Below, piece by piece: positions 1 through 35,367 of a DNA stretch of 64,000 nucleotides. The notes beneath the pieces are model-generated. The model ran no database searches and was not told the DNA's origin. It worked only from the letters and a program-made list of their open reading frames with translations. Position 1 is the stretch's first letter, and each line of letters starts with the position of its first letter. Both the position numbers and the translations under genes were made by a program. Source of the DNA: an uncultured Pseudomonadales bacterium (GTDB taxonomy: Bacteria; Patescibacteriota; Microgenomatia; UBA1400; PJMF01); contig CAZWKL010000002.1 in assembly GCA_964633875.1 (NCBI GenBank), positions 23,338 to 87,337 of the forward strand, read 5' to 3'.

Positions 1-957
1 GATCAGCATGGCCAACAGCAGTTTGAGCGGAATCAACCAAAACTTGGTGCTAGCCATCGTCACCGCGCCGCTGGCGCCGTAGCTCATGGTGAGTTTGGCG
101 GTGTAAAGACCGGTGCCCCAAATTTGCTGCCACTCGTCTTCAAAAGTTCGGCTCATCAGCGGGAAGACGTTTCTTGGTTCAATTTCTAAAGTATCGACTT
201 TTCTGCCAAACATGTTGTAAATTTCAATGCTGGTTCTGGGGGTGATATGAATGTCGGAAGCATTTTCCACGATAAAAGAAAATGGCACCGGGCCGAACTC
301 GGTGAACTTAGGGAATTGGAAGTCACGCACAAAGGCCTCTTCATTGATCGGGCCGTCAACAATAACGTAAAGCAGAGTGCCAACTTTTTGACTGATGGCG
401 CTAGCTGAAACCAACTCGCCTTCGCCGGTTTCCTCACCGTTCACAGCCGGCTCATGAGTAATCATGGCGTAGTGACCACCGGGCAGGGCATCTTCCGGTA
501 CTTCAATCAAAACATTAACCGCACCAGTTTCGTTCCGGTTGAGAGTTTGTGTTTGTGGCACTAAAGTTAGCCAGGAGGCTAAACTCCAGCGGTTGGAAAC
601 TTCTTCATCAACCGAAATCGGGGTGAAGCCGTCCTCAGCGACAGTAAAATCTGCCGCCCGGGAAACAACGTTAAGTGGCTGGTTGGACTCGTTGCGTACC
701 CGCACCTGCACTTGCTGGCGTTCTCCGGGATCGAGTAAAATGCTGTTGTCCTCGCCCAGGCGGGGCGGGATGGCCGTGAGAGCAATATTGGTGAGGCCTG
801 TTTGTTCTTGAGGCTGGCCCTGATCCAGCTGCTCTTGAGCCAGGGAAGTGTTCGTGACGGCAACAGCCGCGGCTGTCAGAGTGGCGGCAACTAAGCCAGC
901 CATGATCAACCGGCGCTGAGTCAGCTTAATAAAAAGTGAAGTTTGGGCAGTTTTCAT
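1..957 (-). CDS. DUF916/DUF3324-like cell-surface protein, 5' complete. The ORF is open to the window start, with a C-terminal TM helix at about 1..42.
   Basis: Manual translation of the minus strand from the ATG at 957 gives MKTAQTSLFIKLTQRRLIMAGLVAATLTAAAVAVTNTSLAQ (signal peptide), continuing to ...STKFWLIPLKLLLAMLI with no stop before coordinate 1. It is absent from the ORF track because it is edge-truncated. Its architecture is signal peptide, beta-rich ectodomain and C-terminal TM, like the 2547..3515 protein. Confidence 0.55.
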   Translation of the reverse strand, partial: MKTAQTSLFIKLTQRRLIMAGLVAATLTAAAVAVTNTSLAQEQLDQGQPQEQTGLTNIALTAIPPRLGEDNSILLDPGERQQVQVRVRNESNQPLNVVSRAADFTVAEDGFTPISVDEEVSNRWSLASWLTLVPQTQTLNRNETGAVNVLIEVPEDALPGGHYAMITHEPAVNGEETGEGELVSASAISQKVGTLLYVIVDGPINEEAFVRDFQFPKFTEFGPVPFSFIVENASDIHITPRTSIEIYNMFGRKVDTLEIEPRNVFPLMSRTFEDEWQQIWGTGLYTAKLTMSYGASGAVTMASTKFWLIPLKLLLAMLI

Positions 958-5133: not shown

Positions 5134-7599
5134 ATGAAAATTAAGCGGGAAAATATGGCGTCAACACAATCTTGGTACGATCACTTAGCAGTAGAACCCA
5201 AATGGCAAAAAGTTTGGGAAGAGTTGGCATTGTTTCAGCGGACCGAGGGAAAAGACCGTGCCGCCGCTGAACTGGACCCCTTGTACTTGCTGTTTGCTTT
5301 TGCCTATCCTTCCGGTTCGGGCCTGCATGTGGGGCATGTGGAAAGCAAAACCGCCCTGGATATTTTAGCTCGCTACTACCGCATGAACGGCAAAGATGTC
5401 TTTTTTCCGGTGGGCTGGGATGCTTTTGGCTTGCCGGCAGAGAATTACGCTATTAAAACCGGCATTCCTCCAGTAGAAACCACCAAGAGCGCCATTGACA
5501 CCTTTCGGGAGCAAATTAAAAGGCTGGCCATTTCCTACGACTGGGCCAACGAAATTGCCACCAATCACCCGGGCTATTATAAATGGACCCAGTGGCTTTT
5601 TCTGGAACTTTTCAAGCAGGGCCTAGCCTACCAAGATGTGGCCATGGTGAACTGGTGTCCGAGTTGCCAGACGGTGTTGGCTAACGAGCAGGTGGTCAAT
5701 GGCCTGTGTGAGCGCTGCGACTCCGAGGTGATTCAGAAAGAAATGAAACAGTGGTTTTTTAAGATTACTGAGTACAAGGATGAGTTGATTGAGGGTTTGA
5801 GTTCGGTGGACTGGCCGGAGGCCACTAAGCAGCAACAGCTTAACTGGATTGGGAAGAAGGAAGGGGCGGTGGTTGAGTTCCCGGTGGTTGGGACTGAGCT
5901 GGTAGTGGATTGCTTCACCACCAGGTTGGATACGATTTTCGGCGCGACTTTTTTGGTCATTTCCCCAGAGAAGTTTGGCAAGATGGAGTTGGATCAAGTA
6001 GTCAAAGCCCAATCGCCCGAGCAGGCCAACCCCGTTGCCGAGTACATCAAGAAGGCTTTCAAAAAAACCGAAGAAGAGCGCCAAGTCGGTGAAAAAGACA
6101 AATCTGGTGTCGATACCGGACTCAAAGCAATCAACCCGGTGAATCAGGAGGAAATTCCTATTTTTGTGGCGGACTATGTTTTGGGTGGCTATGGCACAGG
6201 CGCCATCATGGCGGTGCCGGCGCATGATGAGCGCGATTTTGCTTTTGCCCAGAAGTTTGAGCTGCCGGTTCGTGAGGTGATTGAACCGGCGGGCGAGGGT
6301 TATGGCAAGTTGGTTGAAAGCGGCGCATACACCGGTTTGGCCTCAGCAGCCGCCATGGAAAAAATAGCCGCAGACTTTGACTCTATTCATCCAGAAACCA
6401 CCTACCGCCTGCGCGATTGGCTGATTTCCCGCCAGCGTTACTGGGGCGCGCCGATTCCGATTGTTTATGATCCCGAGGGCCAGCCGCATCTGGTCAAGGA
6501 GGAACACCTGCCTTGGATCCTGCCCACCGACGTTGATTTCAAGCCCACCGGCGAGTCGCCGCTCAAGTCTTCTGCCGAGTTTATCCGCCGCACCGAAGAG
6601 CTGTACGGCCAAGGCTGGCAGCCGGAGTTCGACACCATGGACACTTTTGTGGACTCGAGTTGGTACTTTTTGCGCTACGTGGATTCCAGGAACGAAAACG
6701 AGCTGGCTGCCCGGGAGCAGCTGGAAAAATGGCTGCCGGTGGATTTTTACATGATTGGCTCGGAACACACCGTTTTGCACCTGTTGTATTCGCGGTTCTT
6801 GACCAAGTTTCTGCGGGATCAAGGTTATCTCAACTTTGACGAGCCTTTCCAAAGAATGAGGCACCAGGGGATGATCTTGGGTCCAGACGGCAAAAAAATG
6901 AGCAAGAGCAAAGGCAATGTCATTAATCCAGATGAAATTATTGAAAAATTTGGAGCAGATACCCTCAGGGTTTACGAGATGTTCATGGGGCCGCTTGAGT
7001 CGGATGCTCCCTGGGATGTCCGGGCGGTGATGGGGGTTTTCAAGTTCCTCCAGCGGGTGAACAGGTTGTGTTTGGGGGCGGCTGAAGCAAAGGCGGCCGG
7101 CAGCGAGGCAGCGGTTCGTAAGCTGCACCAGACTATCCGCAAGGTTGGCCATGACATTCCGGCTTTGAAGTTTAACACTGCTATTGCCGCCATGATGGAG
7201 TTTGTCAACGCCTGGGAAGAGGCGGTTAAAGGCGGTGGCGGTTTGAGCCAAGAGCAGAGGCTGATGTTTGTGCGGATTTTAGCGCCTTTCGCGCCGTTTA
7301 TGGCCGAAGAGCTTTATCATCAGCTGACTGGCGCAGAGGAGACAAATAGTGTTCATTTGCAACCTTGGCCGCAGTTTGATGCGGCACTGGCCCGTGAGGA
7401 AGCGGTAGAGATTGGAGTGCAAGTCAATGGCAAGCTCCGCGGTACTGTTGAGATTCCTGCAGACGAGCTGGAAAATGAACAATTGGTCTTGGAAAGGTCG
7501 GCGGCTTTGGAGCCGGTAGCCAAGTACCTCGAGGGCAAGAAGATCAAGCACCAGATTTATGTGCCGGGCAGGATTGTTAGTTTTGTGGTTGAAGGGTAG
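5134..7599 (+). CDS. leuS: Leucyl-tRNA synthetase
   Basis: Class I aaRS signatures: HVGHVESKTALDILARYYRMNGKDVFFPVGWDAFGLPAE (HIGH region) and KMSKSKGNV (KMSKS). 821 aa. The alternative start at 5155 (MASTQSWYDH...) is possible. Confidence 0.95.
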   Translation: MKIKRENMASTQSWYDHLAVEPKWQKVWEELALFQRTEGKDRAAAELDPLYLLFAFAYPSGSGLHVGHVESKTALDILARYYRMNGKDVFFPVGWDAFGLPAENYAIKTGIPPVETTKSAIDTFREQIKRLAISYDWANEIATNHPGYYKWTQWLFLELFKQGLAYQDVAMVNWCPSCQTVLANEQVVNGLCERCDSEVIQKEMKQWFFKITEYKDELIEGLSSVDWPEATKQQQLNWIGKKEGAVVEFPVVGTELVVDCFTTRLDTIFGATFLVISPEKFGKMELDQVVKAQSPEQANPVAEYIKKAFKKTEEERQVGEKDKSGVDTGLKAINPVNQEEIPIFVADYVLGGYGTGAIMAVPAHDERDFAFAQKFELPVREVIEPAGEGYGKLVESGAYTGLASAAAMEKIAADFDSIHPETTYRLRDWLISRQRYWGAPIPIVYDPEGQPHLVKEEHLPWILPTDVDFKPTGESPLKSSAEFIRRTEELYGQGWQPEFDTMDTFVDSSWYFLRYVDSRNENELAAREQLEKWLPVDFYMIGSEHTVLHLLYSRFLTKFLRDQGYLNFDEPFQRMRHQGMILGPDGKKMSKSKGNVINPDEIIEKFGADTLRVYEMFMGPLESDAPWDVRAVMGVFKFLQRVNRLCLGAAEAKAAGSEAAVRKLHQTIRKVGHDIPALKFNTAIAAMMEFVNAWEEAVKGGGGLSQEQRLMFVRILAPFAPFMAEELYHQLTGAEETNSVHLQPWPQFDAALAREEAVEIGVQVNGKLRGTVEIPADELENEQLVLERSAALEPVAKYLEGKKIKHQIYVPGRIVSFVVEG

Positions 7600-27303: not shown

Positions 27304-27570
27304 AATTTGCGGCCAGCGTTTGTCCAAGCTACTACTACCACGACTATTATCCCTGGTTAGGGCGGGGTAGTGGTGGCACGAACTTCTCCTCTCTAACCGG
27401 GGAGATTTTTTGTTTTTCTAACCGCGGCCAGCGGAGTCAGAAACAAGGCCACAAGCAAGGCCAAGCAAGGCCAGAAACAGTGCTACAATAGAAAAAGATT
27501 TTGCTGCGGTGGGATGAGTCTGCTTCCTTGGAGGAGTATTGCCGCCGCAACAGACCAAACGAAAGGATTT

Positions 27571-29325
27571 ATGCCCGGAAAAAATAACTTAGAATTGGAA
27601 AAATTGGAAAATTTGCGCCATTCGGCTGCCCATTTGCTAGCCGCCGCCGTATTGGAGTTGCGCCCAGACACCAAACTCACCATTGGCCCTGCCACCGATG
27701 ATGGTTTTTACTACGATTTTGATTTTGCTGAGCCTTTTTCTGAGAGCGAGCTGCCTGCTGTTGAGGCTAAAATGCGTGAGCTGGTCGGTGGCTGGCACGA
27801 TTTTAAGCGGCAAGAAGTTTCTACCGAGGAGGCTTTGGCCCAGTTTGCCGGCAACCCCTACAAGGCAGAGTTGATTGCAGAGTTGGCTGAAGAAGGCCAG
27901 CAAATTTCTTTGTACCGTTCCGGTGATTTTACCGACCTCTGCCGCGGTGGCCACATCGACAACCCCGCCGAGCAGCTTCAGCATTTTGCTTTACTTGCCG
28001 TAGCCGGCGCTTACTGGCGCGGCAGTGAAAAAAATCCCATGCTCACCCGCATTTACGGCACGGCCTTTTTCAGCCAGGAGGAGTTGGCTGCTCACTTGGC
28101 CATGATCGAAGAAGCCAAGAAGCGGGACCACAAAAAACTTGGCAGAGAACTCGATCTATTTACATTTTCCGAAAAAGTTGGTTCGGGTTTGCCTTTATGG
28201 ACGCCTCGAGGCACTTTGCTGCGTGAGATTCTCAACGATTTTGTTTGGGAATTGCGCAGACAAAAAGGCTACGAAAAAGTAGAAATTCCCCATATCACCA
28301 AGAAAGATTTGTACGAAACCAGCGGCCATTGGGACAAGTTTACCAATGAATTGTTTCGCATTACCACCCGCGAAGGACATGAGTTTGCCATGAAACCCAT
28401 GAACTGTCCGCATCACACGCAAATTTTTGACAGAAAAATGCATAGCTACCGCGAAATGCCGCAGCGCTACGCCAACACCACTATGGTTTACCGTGATGAA
28501 CAATCGGGAGAACTGAATGGCCTTGCTCGGGTCCGCTGCATTACTCAAGACGATGCTCATGTTTTTTGTCGCCAATCACAGGTTAAAGAAGAAATGCTGA
28601 AAATTTGGGAGATTGTCGAAAAGTTTTATTCAGCGGTTGGCTTTGAAGTTGAACTCCGCCTCTCACTTTCTGATCCTGAGCAGCCGGAAAAATACCTGGG
28701 CTCAAGAGATTTGTGGGAAAAATCTGAAAATGAACTCAGGGCAATGGTGGCGGAACAAGGAGCTAGCGCAATTGAGCAGTTGGGTGAGGCCGCTTTTTAC
28801 GGACCCAAGCTTGATTTTATGGCTCATGATTCATTGGGTCGCGAGTGGCAAGTTGCCACTATTCAGCTTGATATGAATATGCCCGAAAGCTTTGATCTAA
28901 ATTGTATTAATGAGGACGGAGAAAAAGAGCGGATTGTGATGATCCACGCTGCCATTATGGGTTCAATTGAGCGCTTTCTTTCTATCATTATTGAACACTA
29001 TGCCGGCCGTTTTCCACTTTGGCTCTCTCCGGTGCAGGCAAAAATTCTGCCGGTTTCAGACAAGTTCAATGATTATGGCCAAAAAGTTCTGGCGGCATTG
29101 AAAGAAGCGGATGTGCGGGCGGAACTGGATGACCGCTCTGAACGACTGGGCGCCAAAATTCGCCAGGGAGAAATGGAAAAAGTGCCTTACTTGCTGGTAG
29201 TAGGTGGTCAAGAAGAGGAGGCCGGTACCGTGACCGTGCGCCGGTGCGGTGAAGATCAACAAGAAGCACTCGAACTCAAAGAATTTGTGAGGAAAATAGT
29301 AAACGAAGTTGCAGAACGTCGTTAA
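27571..29325 (+). CDS. thrS: Threonyl-tRNA synthetase lacking the N-terminal TGS domain
   Basis: Start at MPGKNNLEL. Editing-domain motif LRHSAAHLLAAAV (HxxxH). Class II catalytic core. C-terminal anticodon-binding domain. Confidence 0.92.
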   Translation: MPGKNNLELEKLENLRHSAAHLLAAAVLELRPDTKLTIGPATDDGFYYDFDFAEPFSESELPAVEAKMRELVGGWHDFKRQEVSTEEALAQFAGNPYKAELIAELAEEGQQISLYRSGDFTDLCRGGHIDNPAEQLQHFALLAVAGAYWRGSEKNPMLTRIYGTAFFSQEELAAHLAMIEEAKKRDHKKLGRELDLFTFSEKVGSGLPLWTPRGTLLREILNDFVWELRRQKGYEKVEIPHITKKDLYETSGHWDKFTNELFRITTREGHEFAMKPMNCPHHTQIFDRKMHSYREMPQRYANTTMVYRDEQSGELNGLARVRCITQDDAHVFCRQSQVKEEMLKIWEIVEKFYSAVGFEVELRLSLSDPEQPEKYLGSRDLWEKSENELRAMVAEQGASAIEQLGEAAFYGPKLDFMAHDSLGREWQVATIQLDMNMPESFDLNCINEDGEKERIVMIHAAIMGSIERFLSIIIEHYAGRFPLWLSPVQAKILPVSDKFNDYGQKVLAALKEADVRAELDDRSERLGAKIRQGEMEKVPYLLVVGGQEEEAGTVTVRRCGEDQQEALELKEFVRKIVNEVAERR

Positions 29326-29711
29326 TCGCTTGCACTGATTAAATCTACCTGCTTGTATTTCAATATTTTGTGGTCATTGGTAATCAACTGCAGTTTTTCT
29401 GTTTGGGCTTGGCAAATGAGTAATCTATCAAAGGGATCACGATGAATGTTGGGTAAATTTTGTAGTGCCAGAGTGTGATTTAACTTGATGTTTAATATTT
29501 CGAATGCATCAGAAAATAAATCTCTTGGATTTACATCTAACTTGAATTGTTGATGAGAGTTTAACTTGATGCAAATTTCCCAGGCAGAGACGACGCTGAC
29601 AATAACTAAATTTTCGGGATTTTGAATAATACTTCGAATAGAAGTGCTAAGACGCTTATCGTCTGTATGCCACCAGAGAAAGACCTGAGTATCAAGCAAG
29701 TATTTTTTCAT
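29322..29711 (-). CDS. PIN-domain toxin (VapC family)
   Basis: MKKYLLDTQVFLWWHTDDKRL ... QLITNDHKI. The stop overlaps the thrS stop by 4 nt (convergent). Confidence 0.8.
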   Translation of the reverse strand: MKKYLLDTQVFLWWHTDDKRLSTSIRSIIQNPENLVIVSVVSAWEICIKLNSHQQFKLDVNPRDLFSDAFEILNIKLNHTLALQNLPNIHRDPFDRLLICQAQTEKLQLITNDHKILKYKQVDLISASD

Positions 29712-29953
29712 TCTAAATCCGCTAAATCTCCATAAAAGAGCTTGAGAATCTCAGGGGATAGTTCGTTGAAGTTATCTGGAATATTGATTTTGCCTTTGAA
29801 CTGACCGGGTTTTCGCGACTCGGCAAATTTATAAGGAACTAATTTGACAACTGGTTTTCCGGACTTAGCAATAATAACTTCCTCTCCATCTAGTGCCTCG
29901 TTGACTAATTTAGAAAGTTGAGTTTTTGCCTGGTGCATATTAATTATTTTCAT
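29708..29953 (-). CDS. Phd/YefM-family antitoxin
   Basis: MKIINMHQAKTQLSKLVNEALDGEEVIIAKSGKPVVKLVP. ATGA overlap with the PIN gene. Confidence 0.75.
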   Translation of the reverse strand: MKIINMHQAKTQLSKLVNEALDGEEVIIAKSGKPVVKLVPYKFAESRKPGQFKGKINIPDNFNELSPEILKLFYGDLADLE

Positions 29954-31323: not shown

Positions 31324-31959
31324 TTAAACTTTTTTGACTTGCAGGAAGTCGAGTGTCACCGGAGTTTCCCGGCCGAAAATATTCACCAGCACTTCCACCT
31401 GGCCTTTTTCTTCGTCAATGCCATTGACAGTGCCGAGGAAGTCATTGAACGGCCCATCGGTGATGCGCACCGCTTCGCCCTCGACGTAATCAGCCTTGTA
31501 TTGTGGCGCGGCTTGAGTCATGTACTTCTTGATGGCTTCCACCTCGTGTTTGGGCAGAGCGGTGGGTTTGTTGCCAACGCCGACAAAGCCGGTCACGCCT
31601 TGAGTAGTGCGGACAGCCAGCCAAGAATCATCGGTCAATTCCATTTGTACCAGCATGTAGCCGGGGAAAATTTTCTCACTCACAGTTTTGCGCTGACCGC
31701 GCTTAATCTGAATTTTTTCTTGAGTCGGGATGAGCACAGCCAGAATTTTGCCGGTGAGATTGAGCGTTTCGGCGCGCTGTTTCAAAGTTTCTGCTACTTT
31801 GTTTTCGTGGCCGGAATAGGTATGAACCACATACCAGCGGGCTTTGCGATTTTCCGCTTCCGAAATACGAATAATATTAGGTGAATCAACTTTGACTTCC
31901 TGAATTTCAGGAGGTGTGAGCTGTTGGTTGTCGTTATTGTCTGCCATAATTGCTGCCAT
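31324..31959 (-). CDS. nusG: Transcription termination/antitermination factor NusG
   Basis: KARWYVVHTYSGHENKVAETLKQR (NGN domain). GEAVRITDGPFNDFLGTV (KOW domain). Confidence 0.9.
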   Translation of the reverse strand: MAAIMADNNDNQQLTPPEIQEVKVDSPNIIRISEAENRKARWYVVHTYSGHENKVAETLKQRAETLNLTGKILAVLIPTQEKIQIKRGQRKTVSEKIFPGYMLVQMELTDDSWLAVRTTQGVTGFVGVGNKPTALPKHEVEAIKKYMTQAAPQYKADYVEGEAVRITDGPFNDFLGTVNGIDEEKGQVEVLVNIFGRETPVTLDFLQVKKV

Positions 31960-31964
31960 TCTTT

Positions 31965-32183
31965 CTACAGATTTGTCACTACAAAAGACATCAGTTCTTG
32001 GAAAAAATAGTCCAAGGCACCAATGTAAGCGCCGATAATAATAGTCACCCCGATCACCAGAATTGTCATCTCAATGGTTTGACTTTTATCAGGCCAGGAG
32101 ACTTTTTGCATCTCCCTGCCAACTTGTCGCAAGTAGGTAGTGGGGTTGACCATAGGCAAAGTATTGTAGCAAAGAATGGTCAA
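31965..32183 (-). CDS. secE: Preprotein translocase subunit SecE
   Basis: 72 aa with a single TM. VSWPDKSQTIEMTILVIGVTIIIGAYIGALDYFF. Located immediately upstream of nusG. Confidence 0.75.
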   Translation of the reverse strand: MTILCYNTLPMVNPTTYLRQVGREMQKVSWPDKSQTIEMTILVIGVTIIIGAYIGALDYFFQELMSFVVTNL

Positions 32184-32281: not shown

Positions 32282-32312
32282 TTACAAATCAAGCGGTCTA
32301 TTTTGTTATAAT
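32282..32312 (+). promoter_or_regulatory. Promoter with an extended -10 (TGtTATAAT) and a -35-like TTACAA
   Basis: TATAAT at 32307..32312 preceded by TGt. TTACAA at 32282..32287 (spacer 19). Confidence 0.4.
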
Positions 32313-32319
32313 TTAGGTA

Positions 32320-32480
32320 CAAAAGAAGCACTTTAACAACCGCGTGTGAGAGGCACAGGAATTTTCCTGAACACCTTACATAAGGGCTGATGGATCGTCG
32401 CTTGGCGCTGTGGCGCTGGGCGCATCCTGCCCACCTGCAAATTGCGGGAACATGGTGTCTCTCACACCCGGCGGTTAAAG
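32320..32480 (+). ncRNA. Unclassified structured RNA candidate (about 140-160 nt) with a long closing helix and three internal hairpins
   Basis: 5' arm AACCGCGTGTGAGAGGCAC (32338..32356) pairs with 3' arm GTGTCTCTCACAC..CCGGCGGTT (32455..32476): a 13-bp core with one G-U, extendable to about 18 bp. Internal hairpins: CAGGAAttTTCCTG, GCGCtgtgGCGC and CCTGCaaattGCGGG. The single G-U pair favours the plus strand. Confidence 0.45.
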
Positions 32481-32524
32481 GCGTTTTGGGCTTCTGATCT
32501 AGTCCTATATGGTAAAATATATTC

Positions 32525-32923
32525 ATGATTGAAGAGAAAATAGGGGAAGATTTAGCAAAGATTGCTGATCTTTTTGAAAATTTGCTAAAGCCCGCTGTGG
32601 ATTTAAGGAATAGTATTGCTCCGGAAATGGAGTATGTTGCTTCCGGAGTTATGTTATATTTTGTTCTTTCCATAATGCTAAAACATGGTATTTTTTCTGA
32701 AAACATGTCCGGTGCCGGGTTGGTAGTGACCAAGCAAATGGCGGATGCTTTGAGTCAATTTATTGACACAAAGACTAGTGTAAGTTCAGAAGCAGTCTAT
32801 GGAGCAGTAGCAGGAACTTATGCTTTGTTCGTGATTGATGGCGCGCGGCGGATAACAAAAGAAAGGCTGCCGCAGATTTTGGCTTGGTTTCGAGTATTTG
32901 TTCTGCACAATTCCTCTGAATAA
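32525..32923 (+). CDS. Hypothetical protein (132 aa) downstream of the structured RNA
   Basis: ORF with one hydrophobic segment. No recognisable motif. Confidence 0.45.
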   Translation: MIEEKIGEDLAKIADLFENLLKPAVDLRNSIAPEMEYVASGVMLYFVLSIMLKHGIFSENMSGAGLVVTKQMADALSQFIDTKTSVSSEAVYGAVAGTYALFVIDGARRITKERLPQILAWFRVFVLHNSSE

Positions 32924-32984
32924 TGGTAAAATCTCACGCATGTGGGCGTTGCTGTGGTGCAGCGCGTTCTTTAAATTAAAAATT

Positions 32985-33744: not shown

Positions 33745-33809
33745 CAAGAGAGCAGCTTGTGTTACAATACTTCCTCTTGAGTTTACGAAAGCAAAATAAT
33801 AAGGAAAAT

Positions 33810-34013
33810 ATGGCAAAAGCAAAAAAAGGACCAAGACAAATCGCCGGTTTAAAGTGTGATGCTTGTGGCTCGTTCAACTACTTGACCGAATACAACAAAA
33901 ATAACGAAACCTTGATGAAACAGACCAAGAACGTGAGTACTTTTCCCCTCAAGAAATACTGTAACGTTTGCCGCGCTCATCAATCTCACGTGATGGCTAA
34001 AAAACTGAAGTAG
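33810..34013 (+). CDS. rpmG: Ribosomal protein L33
   Basis: MAKAKKGPRQIAGLKCDACGSFNYLTEYNKNNETLMKQTKNVSTFPLKKYCNVCRAHQSH. Zn-ribbon CxxC...CxxC. Confidence 0.85.
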   Translation: MAKAKKGPRQIAGLKCDACGSFNYLTEYNKNNETLMKQTKNVSTFPLKKYCNVCRAHQSHVMAKKLK

Positions 34014-34041: not shown

Positions 34042-35367
34042 TCACATCTCTTTTCGCGCCAGCTTCACTACTTTGACAATTTCTTTGGCGCCATTCAAGA
34101 AAAGCGGATCAAGTTTGTGCGCGTTGAGCATGGCTTGCTCGATCCAGGACTGAGATTTCCCCTGAGAAGAGCGGAGAACTGCCAGCTGAGAAACAATGTG
34201 GGCCACGTCCGCCTGCCTGGAAATTGCTTTTTGCTCAAAAATAACCCTGATTCGCTCTTCCCATTCGCCCCATTCAGCCAGTGACAGGATAAAGCTGCCG
34301 GAGGCGGCCGCGTCGTAGGCCATGTCGCCGGAAGGTTTGGAAAGGAAGCCGTGCGCCCAAGGAAAGCCGTACTTGATGAGCATTTCGTTGGCGTCGACAA
34401 TTTGCGGATGGTAGAGAACCCGAAACCTAGCCTTTTTGTCCGCCAGTTTGCCGGGCGCTATTCTGGCTCTGCCGGCAAGAAAAACCGCTTCTTCATAAAT
34501 ATCCCGATGGGTGCCGGCGTAGACCAACAGCCGGAGTTGTGGGTCGCGCTTTCTTAATTCCGGCAGCAGTTGCTCGAGGAGGTTGAGGATTTCTTGCTTG
34601 TTGGTGCCGAGGCCGCCGGTGGTGAGGGCGAGATTGAGCGGGCCGCTGCGCCACGGGTTTTTTTTGGTTTTGGCGGCGATGACACGCGGATCCACCGGCG
34701 GCCCAGTCACAATAATTCTGTCCGGCTCGGCTTCAATCCCTAACTTGGCTGCCTTTTCCAAAAATTCCGTCTTAGTATTTTCATCAAAAGTACAAAACCA
34801 AAGATTGCTTTTATCCGCGTTAGTCACATACTCTGTTCTCACATGCGGATCAGTAATCACTTGCACCACTTTTTTGCCTTGTTCAGCCAAAATATTACCG
34901 GCGGCAATATGAAAAGAGAGAATTGGCCGGTGAATATTTTCCGTTAAGTAAAGCAGCGGCGGCGTAATACTACTCAGAATTGGCAACTTTTGCCTGCCAA
35001 AATTATCAATAAAATCCTTGACGGTTTTCAAAATCGAGTAGCGGGCAATGGTTTTGCCAACCGCTTGGGTGAACTCAATCGAAAACCAATTCTTTTTAGA
35101 AACGTAATTGGTGGGTTCCACAATCCAGGCCCGATCCGGCCGCAGCCGGTCCCCCCAAATCTGAGTCGCCACCCCCAGCGCCATCGAGTAATGCGCCCGC
35201 GAAAACACCACGTCGGGAATGGTATCATCATCCGGCAAACCATGCATCCGCTTGAGGTCCTCCTTGTAAGTGGCCGAAACAGTCACAATCGGAATCTCGG
35301 TTTGCTCAAGCAGGCGCTTGTCTTCTCGATAAGTTTTGACTAAATGAGGGTCGAATAATTCAGGCAT
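34042..35367 (-). CDS. Putative GT-B glycosyltransferase (MGDG-synthase/MurG-like C-terminal half)
   Basis: NLALTTGGLGTNKQEIL and FLSKPSGDMAYDAAASGSFIL resemble the C-domain nucleotide-sugar binding motifs of GT28-type enzymes. Assignment tentative. Confidence 0.5.
   Translation of the reverse strand: MPELFDPHLVKTYREDKRLLEQTEIPIVTVSATYKEDLKRMHGLPDDDTIPDVVFSRAHYSMALGVATQIWGDRLRPDRAWIVEPTNYVSKKNWFSIEFTQAVGKTIARYSILKTVKDFIDNFGRQKLPILSSITPPLLYLTENIHRPILSFHIAAGNILAEQGKKVVQVITDPHVRTEYVTNADKSNLWFCTFDENTKTEFLEKAAKLGIEAEPDRIIVTGPPVDPRVIAAKTKKNPWRSGPLNLALTTGGLGTNKQEILNLLEQLLPELRKRDPQLRLLVYAGTHRDIYEEAVFLAGRARIAPGKLADKKARFRVLYHPQIVDANEMLIKYGFPWAHGFLSKPSGDMAYDAAASGSFILSLAEWGEWEERIRVIFEQKAISRQADVAHIVSQLAVLRSSQGKSQSWIEQAMLNAHKLDPLFLNGAKEIVKVVKLARKEM

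Follow-up and report, generated by a model that had tools for sequence, protein, structure and literature searches.

The window analysed here is a stretch of 64,000 nucleotides (nt) from a Patescibacteria ('Pacebacteria') genome, and all positions are given on that window unless a locus is named. At approximately 32320-32488 on the plus strand, behind a promoter-like site of the form TGnTATAAT, it carries a structured element that we judge to be a probable gene for 6S RNA. The guanine-plus-cytosine content of this element is 59%, compared with 33% in its flanks (upstream spacer), and the element is single-copy in the window. An earlier reading of the same DNA, referred to below as the original prediction, had described it as an unclassified structured RNA and a candidate small RNA or riboswitch. 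The genes and open reading frames (ORFs) that surround the element, one of which encodes 132 amino acids (aa), are as follows.

27514-29325, plus strand: thrS, an ORF
29322-29953, minus strand: a VapBC-like pair of ORFs, of which the window copy was checked against Pfam
Minus strand: ORFs for rplA, rplK, nusG (31324-31959) and secE (31965-32183)
Plus strand, in this order: the element, the 132-aa ORF (32525-32923), tRNA-Thr(GGU), tRNA-Tyr, tRNA-Thr(UGU), rpmG and tRNA-Trp

The element itself consists of the parts listed below, where P0 to P5 denote helices, lengths of helices are given in base pairs (bp), and all parts are on the plus strand.

32282-32312: promoter-like region (read from the sequence) comprising TTACAA at 32282-32287, a 19-nt spacer and an extended -10 motif, TGtTATAAT
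32331-32355: 5' strand of the closing stem, with P0 (CUUUAAC, 32331-32337) and P1 (32340-32355, including GUGUGAGAGGCA); pairs with 32456-32480
32344-32356 with 32455-32467: the 13-bp helix, GUGUGAGAGGCAC with GUGUCUCUCACAC
32356-32363: CAGGAAUU, the 5' part of the P1-P2 internal loop, with a conserved U-run as its last bases
32364-32369: 5' strand of P2, UUCCUG, the putative 'downstream duplex' by the bubble; pairs with CGGGAA at 32445-32450
32370-32383: 5' half of the central bubble, AACACCUUACAUAA, with a conserved RAYA start
32384-32432: apical arm, with P3 (GGGC/GCCC, 32384-32387 with 32429-32432) and P4 (GGA/UCC, 32392-32394 with 32425-32427)
32397-32408 with 32413-32423: P5, the tip of the apical arm, with a UGUG loop at 32409-32412
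32433-32444: 3' half of the central bubble, ACCUGCAAAUUG, with a conserved ACYU as the putative '-10-like' start; left arm of a predicted alternative (release-type) hairpin
32445-32450: 3' strand of P2, CGGGAA, whose alternative partners are UUCCUG (P2) or CCUG(C) of the 3' bubble
32451-32455: 3' side of the internal loop, ACAUG, followed at 32456-32480 by the 3' strand of the closing stem
32481-32488: a short U-run, GCGUUUUG, after the closing stem (read from the sequence)

On the plus strand, the predicted minimum free energy is -75.1 kcal/mol, compared with -50.3 +/- 3.7 kcal/mol for 200 dinucleotide shuffles (z = -6.7). The long helix reported originally is present as described: its single G-U pair (G32353-U32458) is a C-A mismatch on the minus strand, and pairing extends outward through CCG/CGG and then CUUUAAC/GUUAAAG (32331-32337 with 32474-32480). 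The promoter motif is likewise present, with its TG at 32304-32305 and its TATAAT at 32307-32312, and it lies 19 nt 5' of the outermost helix and 31 nt 5' of the 13-bp helix. Transcription would be expected to start near 32319-32322. A simple promoter scan did not report this promoter, presumably because its 19-nt spacer lies outside the 16-18 nt rule of the scan. The U-run GCGUUUUG could be a weak terminator-like tail and could mark the 3' end of the RNA, in which case the transcript, including leader and tail, would be approximately 165-170 nt long.

Relatives were gathered by a NusG-based scan that took one genome per GTDB species and yielded 80 loci, with NusG identities of 71% to 97%. All of these come from Patescibacteria or 'Pacebacteria'-type metagenome-assembled genomes, some of which are labelled inconsistently in their record titles (Pseudomonadales, Methylococcaceae, Limisphaerales, Vitreimonas). 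BLASTN matched the element in 18 of the 80 loci. R1, a covariance model built from ten copies of the element, matches 67 of the 80; in every case nusG lies on the other strand, just as it does in the window. Its scores are 78-172 bits in 65 loci and 36-37 bits in two weaker ones (L072 and L075), and the reverse complement scores 19-39 bits. Among the 13 loci that R1 does not match, two (L012 and L071) have 5.5-6.3 kb of contig upstream of nusG, and in the other eleven this stretch is shorter than about 3.5 kb. There is one copy per 20-kb locus except in L050, which has two. From one outer helix end to the other, the homologues measure 137-159 nt, with a median of 150. A -10-like TAYRVT hexamer lies at most 45 nt 5' of the outer helix in 37 of 66 homologues, 13 of them with a preceding TGn, and a run of at least four T residues lies within 16 nt 3' of the outer helix in 27 of 66.

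Base pairing was counted on A4, a model-based alignment of 66 sequences, with slid-partner controls, and the alternative hairpin was analysed sequence by sequence. The MAFFT alignment A3 (68 copies) was not used for the pair counts because the 3' bubble, which varies in length, and the 3' strand of P2 are wrongly aligned in it. In A4, 94.7% of cells pair, and sliding the 3' partners by 1-3 columns lowers this share to 45-52%. Compensatory double changes occur in 38 of the 45 pairs, and not one of 500 column shuffles attains any of the five measures employed. RNAalifold, run on an independent MAFFT alignment, returns the same rod. Given the conservation seen with R1, the strand bias and the covariation, the element is a real, conserved, strand-specific structured RNA gene. 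This much of the original prediction, which had called for a search of relatives followed by covariation analysis, is thus borne out.

The conserved fold is a rod that consists of the closing stem, P2, a central bubble, a GGGY/RCCC helix and an apical stem, and not a helix that encloses three hairpins as had been proposed. All 21 consensus pairs of the closing stem (P0/P1) show compensatory double changes among the 66 sequences, with 91-93% of cells paired. In the internal loop that follows, the UU before UUCCU is nearly invariant. P2, with the consensus UUCCUS/SGGGAA, is paired in 96.7% of cells, and its terminal pair is C-G in 29 sequences and G-C in 24. The 5' half of the bubble opens with RAYA in 65 of the 66 aligned homologues, mostly as AACA, GAUA or AAUA, and continues for some 10 variable nt; the 3' half is composed of ACYU, in which only Y varies (between C and U), plus about 9 nt. 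In P3, GGG/CCC is invariant and the fourth pair covaries between U-A (29) and C-G (21). Double changes occur in all 14 pairs of P4 and P5, the latter ending in a YGUG loop. Across the family, no columns are invariant except GGG and CCCAC.U.

A second hairpin, formed from the 3' bubble and the 3' strand of P2 and therefore mutually exclusive with P2, is predicted in 59 of the 66 sequences (median -7.0 kcal/mol; mean z of -2.4 relative to shuffles). Its variants include CCUGC/GCGGG, CCUGG/CCGGG and CCUCG/CGGGG among others, and its upper pairs change compensatorily (GC/GC, GG/CC, CG/CG and AG/CU). The three enclosed hairpins of the original prediction can be understood against this background, as they reproduce the minimum free energy fold of the window sequence alone rather than the structure of the family. 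The first (CAGGAA/UUCCUG) can form in only 5 of the 66 homologues, and its partner strand belongs instead to the covarying P2. The tip of the second (GCGC-UGUG-GCGC) is conserved, but as the end of the longer apical stem P5. The third (CCUGC/GCGGG) is the recurrent hairpin just described, although it competes with the conserved and covarying UUCCUS/SGGGAA helix.

These features can be compared with those of 6S RNA, a rod in which a closing stem and an interrupted apical stem flank a central bubble (PMC8876501). In 6S RNA, the apical arm holds a '-35-like' region and the 3' bubble a '-10-like' one, and the P2 or downstream helix is opened by a product RNA (pRNA) for which the 5' bubble and the 5' strand of P2 serve as template (PMC8876501). 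The element has the same arrangement, namely a closing stem, P2, a central bubble of 14 nt (5') and 12 nt (3') in the window copy, and an interrupted apical stem. The GGG and CCCAC.U of the family, which border the bubble on its upstream side, align column for column with GGG...CCCACCU, given in capital letters and the most conserved block in the consensus of RF00013, the Rfam model for 6S RNA, and this model places its own 5' bubble on the 5' bubble of the element family. The rearrangement associated with 6S RNA is also reproduced computationally, in that the hairpin exclusive with P2 is predicted in most copies and a pRNA of 9 nt would unwind P2. Lastly, the RAYA start and the predicted pRNAs, GUUSAGGAAAA or AUCSAGGAAAA, resemble the template-strand signature of 6S RNA; GUU[C/G]AGGAAAA is predicted in 38 of the 66 sequences and AUC[C/G]AGGAAA(A/U) in 8.

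Further evidence comes from related copies that link the family to RF00013. L093 matches this model with 35.3 bits (E = 1.2e-4 in 4.6 kb, and 4.8e-6 on the element alone), L152 with 19.3 bits and the genome relative L037 with 15.8 bits. These scores lie below threshold, and all three matches are full-length (model positions 1-187), on the correct strand and with bubble aligned to bubble. The bridge loci L093 and L152 score 38.8 and 33 bits, respectively, with R1. A degenerate pattern scan of metagenomes, which gives no estimate of abundance, provided at least 80 listed loci; R1 matched 13 of the 80 listed, six at 87-131 bits and seven at 28-39 bits, and most of the others are chance matches. 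The seven weaker members share the core AUUU(U)CCUGAAYA ... GGG ... ACCCACCU. All seven have a TATAAT- or TACAAT-like -10 hexamer about 5-10 nt 5' of the closing stem, which in four cases is followed by a U-run.

We therefore consider the element to be a compact (approximately 150 nt between outer helix ends), divergent and unannotated 6S RNA gene of the ssrS type belonging to this Patescibacteria lineage, and we assign a probability of roughly 0.8 to this interpretation. The element is thereby a new addition to an established class rather than the founder of another. The original prediction had set 6S RNA aside; this exclusion does not hold, given that the conserved architecture and invariant motifs are those of 6S RNA and that related copies match RF00013.

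Several observations nevertheless weigh against this assignment. No copy examined reaches the RF00013 gathering score of 46.4 bits, and with the cut-off relaxed to E <= 10 the model still matches neither the window copy nor L052 nor L086. The reciprocal search also fails, as R1 reaches at best 5.2 bits on the E. coli ssrS locus with filters off. The pattern used for the metagenomes already contained GGG...RCCCACNT, such that part of the RF00013 score of the loci found in this way was pre-loaded by selection; however, 67 of the 80 listed pattern matches did not match R1, and therefore the pattern alone does not create the bridge matches. The RNA is about 150 nt long, compared with about 200 nt for a typical 6S RNA (PMC8876501), and its UUUUCCU and AUGGA sequences are more strongly conserved than is usual in 6S RNA. 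Set against a span of about 160-200 nt for 6S RNAs, both this length and the 165-170 nt expected for the window transcript fall near or under the lower limit. In the window copy, the fold with local hairpins (-79.5 kcal/mol) is approximately 6 kcal/mol more stable than that with P2 enforced and the bubble open (-73.7 kcal/mol), and therefore the free RNA may rest in a 'closed' form. Binding to RNA polymerase and production of a pRNA are inferred here by likeness to known 6S RNAs, and, since our searches covered the 64-kb window and the 20-kb loci, a second, canonical 6S gene could be present elsewhere in the genome. With regard to Rfam as a whole, a scan of the entire window at gathering threshold returned six tRNAs and nothing else, which agrees with the expectation that the element would match no known family at that level, and permissive scans of the window element gave only noise, such as mir-7386, SAM-II and snoTBR7.

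If the element functions as the 6S RNAs of E. coli and B. subtilis do, the rod-shaped RNA would imitate an open promoter and occupy the active site of the housekeeping sigma-RNA polymerase holoenzyme. Like other 6S RNAs, it would also be abundant and stable as a transcript. The apical arm, from GGGY/RCCC onward, would mimic upstream DNA, and P2 together with the closing stem would mimic downstream DNA. The 3' strand of the bubble that opens with ACYU would take the place of the non-template '-10' strand, and the 5' strand that of the template. When nucleoside triphosphates are plentiful, polymerase would start a short pRNA at the pyrimidine of RAYA (C32372), for which the predicted product in the window is 5'-GUUCAGGAAAAUU and the first bases are 5'-GUUCAGGAAAA. 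The 5' strand of P2, UUCCUG, would serve as template for pRNA positions 4-9. After 9 nt (three from the bubble and six from P2), P2 would be fully unwound, and the freed CGGGAA could pair with CCUG(C) of the 3' bubble. The resulting release hairpin would collapse the bubble and eject the RNA.

The closest model for this cycle is E. coli 6S RNA, whose ssrS sequence we verified (100% identity, annotated as '6S RNA' in 5,426 genomes). Like the element, it is rod-shaped, and its closing stem is followed by a downstream duplex, a large central bubble and an apical arm. Its 5' bubble begins with G42-A43-U44-A45, with pRNA starting at U44 (PMC3988568), and RAYA of the element family is literally GAUA in about eight members. 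The highly conserved ACCU at positions 131-134 in its 3' bubble (A131-C-C-U134) corresponds to the ACYU of the family. Once a 9-nt pRNA has been made in E. coli, the 3' bubble pairs with the downstream duplex's 3' strand to give a release hairpin of 9 bp, and the same pairing of the non-template strand is predicted here once a pRNA of this length has unwound the duplex. However, E. coli 6S RNA is 184 nt long rather than about 150 nt, its downstream duplex and release hairpin are about 10 bp and 9 bp rather than 6 bp and 5-7 bp, and its upstream-edge helix is GAAUG/CAUUC, whereas the element family has the GGG/CCC of the Rfam consensus. Moreover, the E. coli gene lies between zapA and a 5-formyl-tetrahydrofolate cyclo-ligase gene rather than before a tRNA array, and neither covariance model significantly detects the sequence of the other.

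The element also resembles B. subtilis 6S-1 RNA (bsrA). The 6S-1 pRNA is GUUCGGUCAAAACU, GTP-initiated and beginning with GUUC, with a run of four A residues, and that of E. coli is AUCGGCUCAGGGG (PMC12005410); the pRNA predicted here, GUUCAGGAAAAUU, has its four A residues at positions 8-11. In both the B. subtilis RNA and the element, a P2 helix is to be unwound by the pRNA. At about 190 nt, 6S-1 RNA is longer, and it employs a 'central bubble collapse helix', formed when P2's 3' strand pairs with the distal 5' bubble, rather than an extended 3'-bubble hairpin (PMC8876501); in this respect, the predicted hairpin of the element follows the E. coli pattern. A truncated 6S-1 RNA comprising the bubble and short arms still completes the cycle in vitro (PMC8876501), and therefore a naturally compact 6S RNA is plausible. 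Aquifex aeolicus, whose pRNA is GUAGGCCCCAUUGACAA (PMC12005410), provides an example of a 6S RNA kept in a small, condensed genome (PMC8876501). The A. aeolicus RNA belongs to another phylum and, unlike the element, is already accepted as 6S in the literature.

A further point of reference is Ms1 RNA of the Actinobacteria. Ms1 binds the core enzyme and not the sigma holoenzyme, and it is a much longer RNA. It resembles the element in forming a 6S-like rod, in associating with RNA polymerase and in being missed by the 6S model (PMC9130861). Unlike Ms1, the element keeps the 6S-specific CCCACCU/'-10-like' motif, and this points to recognition of the holoenzyme type.

Because the element could be mistaken for other kinds of RNA, we have weighed several alternatives to 6S RNA. 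It might be an undescribed trans-acting structured RNA from bacteria of the Candidate Phyla Radiation (CPR), either protein-binding or catalytic, whose rod is convergent with that of 6S RNA and whose GGG/CCCACCU serves another role. The lack of an Rfam family at threshold, the unusual conservation of the internal-loop sequences (UUUUCCU, AUGGA, GU and UCCU) and the inability of R1 to find E. coli 6S RNA would all fit this proposal. However, the two most conserved blocks occupy the same structural positions as the consensus blocks of 6S RNA, the RAYA/ACYU bubble edges and the mutually exclusive hairpin match experimentally defined 6S features, and the L093 element matches RF00013 with E = 4.8e-6; we accordingly regard this alternative as unlikely. 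The signal recognition particle (SRP) RNA (4.5S), the other rod-shaped housekeeping RNA, comes to mind because the element, too, is rod-like, a hairpin with internal loops that measures about 100-150 nt and is present once per locus. Bacterial SRP RNA is marked by a helix 8 that has a GNRA cap and conserved symmetric and asymmetric loops. Domain IV of SRP RNA carries a conserved GGAAGCAGC-type motif, and this motif is absent from the element sequence. There is also no match to an SRP model at E <= 10, the variable tip has a YGUG apical loop instead of GNRA, and conservation centres on the bubble in the middle of the rod instead of near its tip, such that the chance of this reading is negligible. 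SRP RNA, RNase P RNA, tmRNA, Y-RNA or tRNA-like RNAs and retron non-coding RNA were all rejected as candidates, as their defining motifs, Rfam matches or associated genes are missing.

Two cis-acting explanations depend on the neighbours of the element. The RNA could be the leader of the tRNA-Thr/Tyr/Thr operon and control tRNA transcription, whether by attenuation or termination or through processing or stability. Indeed, a tRNA-Thr(GGU) gene follows on the same strand within 900 nt in 59 of the 66 homologues, at a median gap of 90 nt and at only 0-11 nt in four loci (L033, L038, L040 and L067), and the closing stem with its U-run looks terminator-like in the 27 homologues mentioned above. 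Nevertheless, many of the printed gaps between RNA and tRNA hold a separate -10-like element (TGGTAAAAT, TGATATAAT or GGTACAAT), and in the window a tRNA promoter is scored at 32904-32932, including TGGTAAAAT at 32924-32932. The distant members adjoin tRNA-Pro(GGG), RNase P RNA or no tRNA, the second copy in L050 is away from tRNAs, and a simple attenuator needs no covarying rod of 45 pairs with a conserved bubble. We find this explanation quite improbable. The riboswitch or leader proposed for the 132-aa ORF, which starts 45 nt 3' of the element on the same strand, is effectively refuted. The ORF is genuine as an open reading frame, but it is an orphan, with no Pfam family or domain and a single homologue (99% identical) in 5.8 billion proteins searched. 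It sits in an insertion of about 410 nt (32479-32889) that is missing from the closest relative, L001, and no such ORF follows any other homologue of the RNA. Neither a conserved class of downstream genes nor a conserved expression platform was found, and a cis-regulatory link to this ORF was dropped when the homologue search gave one near-identical protein and no family. In view of its own -10 boxes and U-runs, the separate tRNA promoters and the differing neighbours of distant members, the RNA behaves as an independent gene, and its position by the tRNA cluster is lineage-specific synteny.

Some observations on the surroundings of the 6S-like RNA in other loci may be useful. In L152 (395-470) and L146 (2220-2296), tRNA-Pro(GGG) adjoins the RNA with few nt between them. 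Such proximity, and likewise that of 0-11 nt in L033, L038, L040 and L067, implies that in these lineages the 3' end of the RNA would be made by 5' processing of the tRNA by RNase P. In L086, a bacterial class A RNase P RNA (279-619, minus strand; 239 bits) lies about 900 nt 3' of the 6S-like gene on the same strand, and housekeeping RNA genes may be clustered there. The two copies in L050, at 89-265 (plus strand) and 7239-7411 (minus strand), have scores of 77.7 and 123.9 bits. They are about 7 kb apart, and the second has unrelated hypothetical ORFs rather than tRNAs as neighbours. Most genomes have a single 6S gene and a few have two paralogues, and this second copy may be such a paralogue, as with 6S-1 and 6S-2 in Bacillus. 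In many relatives, including L054 (5233-6144), the same-strand gene upstream resembles UTP-glucose-1-phosphate uridylyltransferase, ending in ...HEKYG.K...W, and the RNA starts a few tens of nt after its stop codon. This gene appears to encode a nucleotidyltransferase, as judged from its motifs and not from a Pfam scan. It is absent in the window and in L001, where secE is the divergent neighbour.

The remaining features of the locus concern the neighbouring genes. In L001, whose NusG is 97% identical to that of the window, the distance from the RNA to tRNA-Thr is 123 nt. The insertion at 32479-32889 in the window begins right at the 3' end of the RNA, and it is flanked by two copies of TGGTAAAAT (32510-32518 and 32924-32932), the second being the -10 box of the tRNA operon, which looks like a promoter duplicated at the insertion site. 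Between rpmG and tRNA-Trp lies a 441-aa ORF (34042-35367, minus strand) without a Pfam domain. It has a counterpart at the same position in L001 (6633-7958) and a longer form in L050 (3181-4740), and we take it to encode a protein of unknown function that is conserved in the lineage within the tRNA/rpmG cluster. Genes for PIN-domain (VapC-like) toxins with small upstream antitoxin-like ORFs are found in the window (29322-29953, minus strand), in L001 (8552-9185, between tRNA-Tyr and tRNA-Thr(UGU)) and in L054 (4050-4726). These are insertions at differing sites of an otherwise conserved ribosomal and tRNA neighbourhood, and of the three only the window copy was checked against Pfam. The rpmG ORF is listed at 33759-34013 (plus strand; 84 aa) with a GTG start, and its true start is probably later, at an internal MAKAKKGPRQ, which would give an L33 protein of normal size. 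NusG (31324-31959, minus strand) has an N-terminal extension of about 35-40 aa before its NGN domain, with the Pfam match beginning at residue 41.

6S RNA is described as nearly universal in bacteria. We found no paper that joins 6S RNA with CPR bacteria or Patescibacteria in the literature searched, which excludes the 2014 survey 'Dissemination of 6S RNA among bacteria'. With the assignment proposed here, a candidate 'novel RNA' is explained by a known class, its mechanism is expected to be the known one, and a gap in annotation is filled. Once the family is recognised, a housekeeping RNA now missing from the annotation of many small CPR genomes could be supplied. If the assignment is true, reduced and probably symbiotic cells retain a global brake on transcription, and a natural 'minimal' 6S RNA would serve mechanistic studies of the portion of the rod that polymerase binding and pRNA-driven release require.

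A broader and more tentative proposal, which we consider possible while not favouring it, is that the element represents a naturally miniaturised 6S family of about 150 nt with a 6-bp downstream duplex, widespread in Patescibacteria, systematically missed by the Rfam model and typically heading a tRNA-Thr/Tyr/Thr cluster. Were this true, these RNAs would be among the most compact natural 6S RNAs, akin in spirit to the truncated 6S-1 constructs that cycle in vitro (PMC8876501). Ultra-small, host-dependent CPR bacteria would then keep a growth-state switch that sequesters RNA polymerase, possibly co-regulated with tRNA supply.

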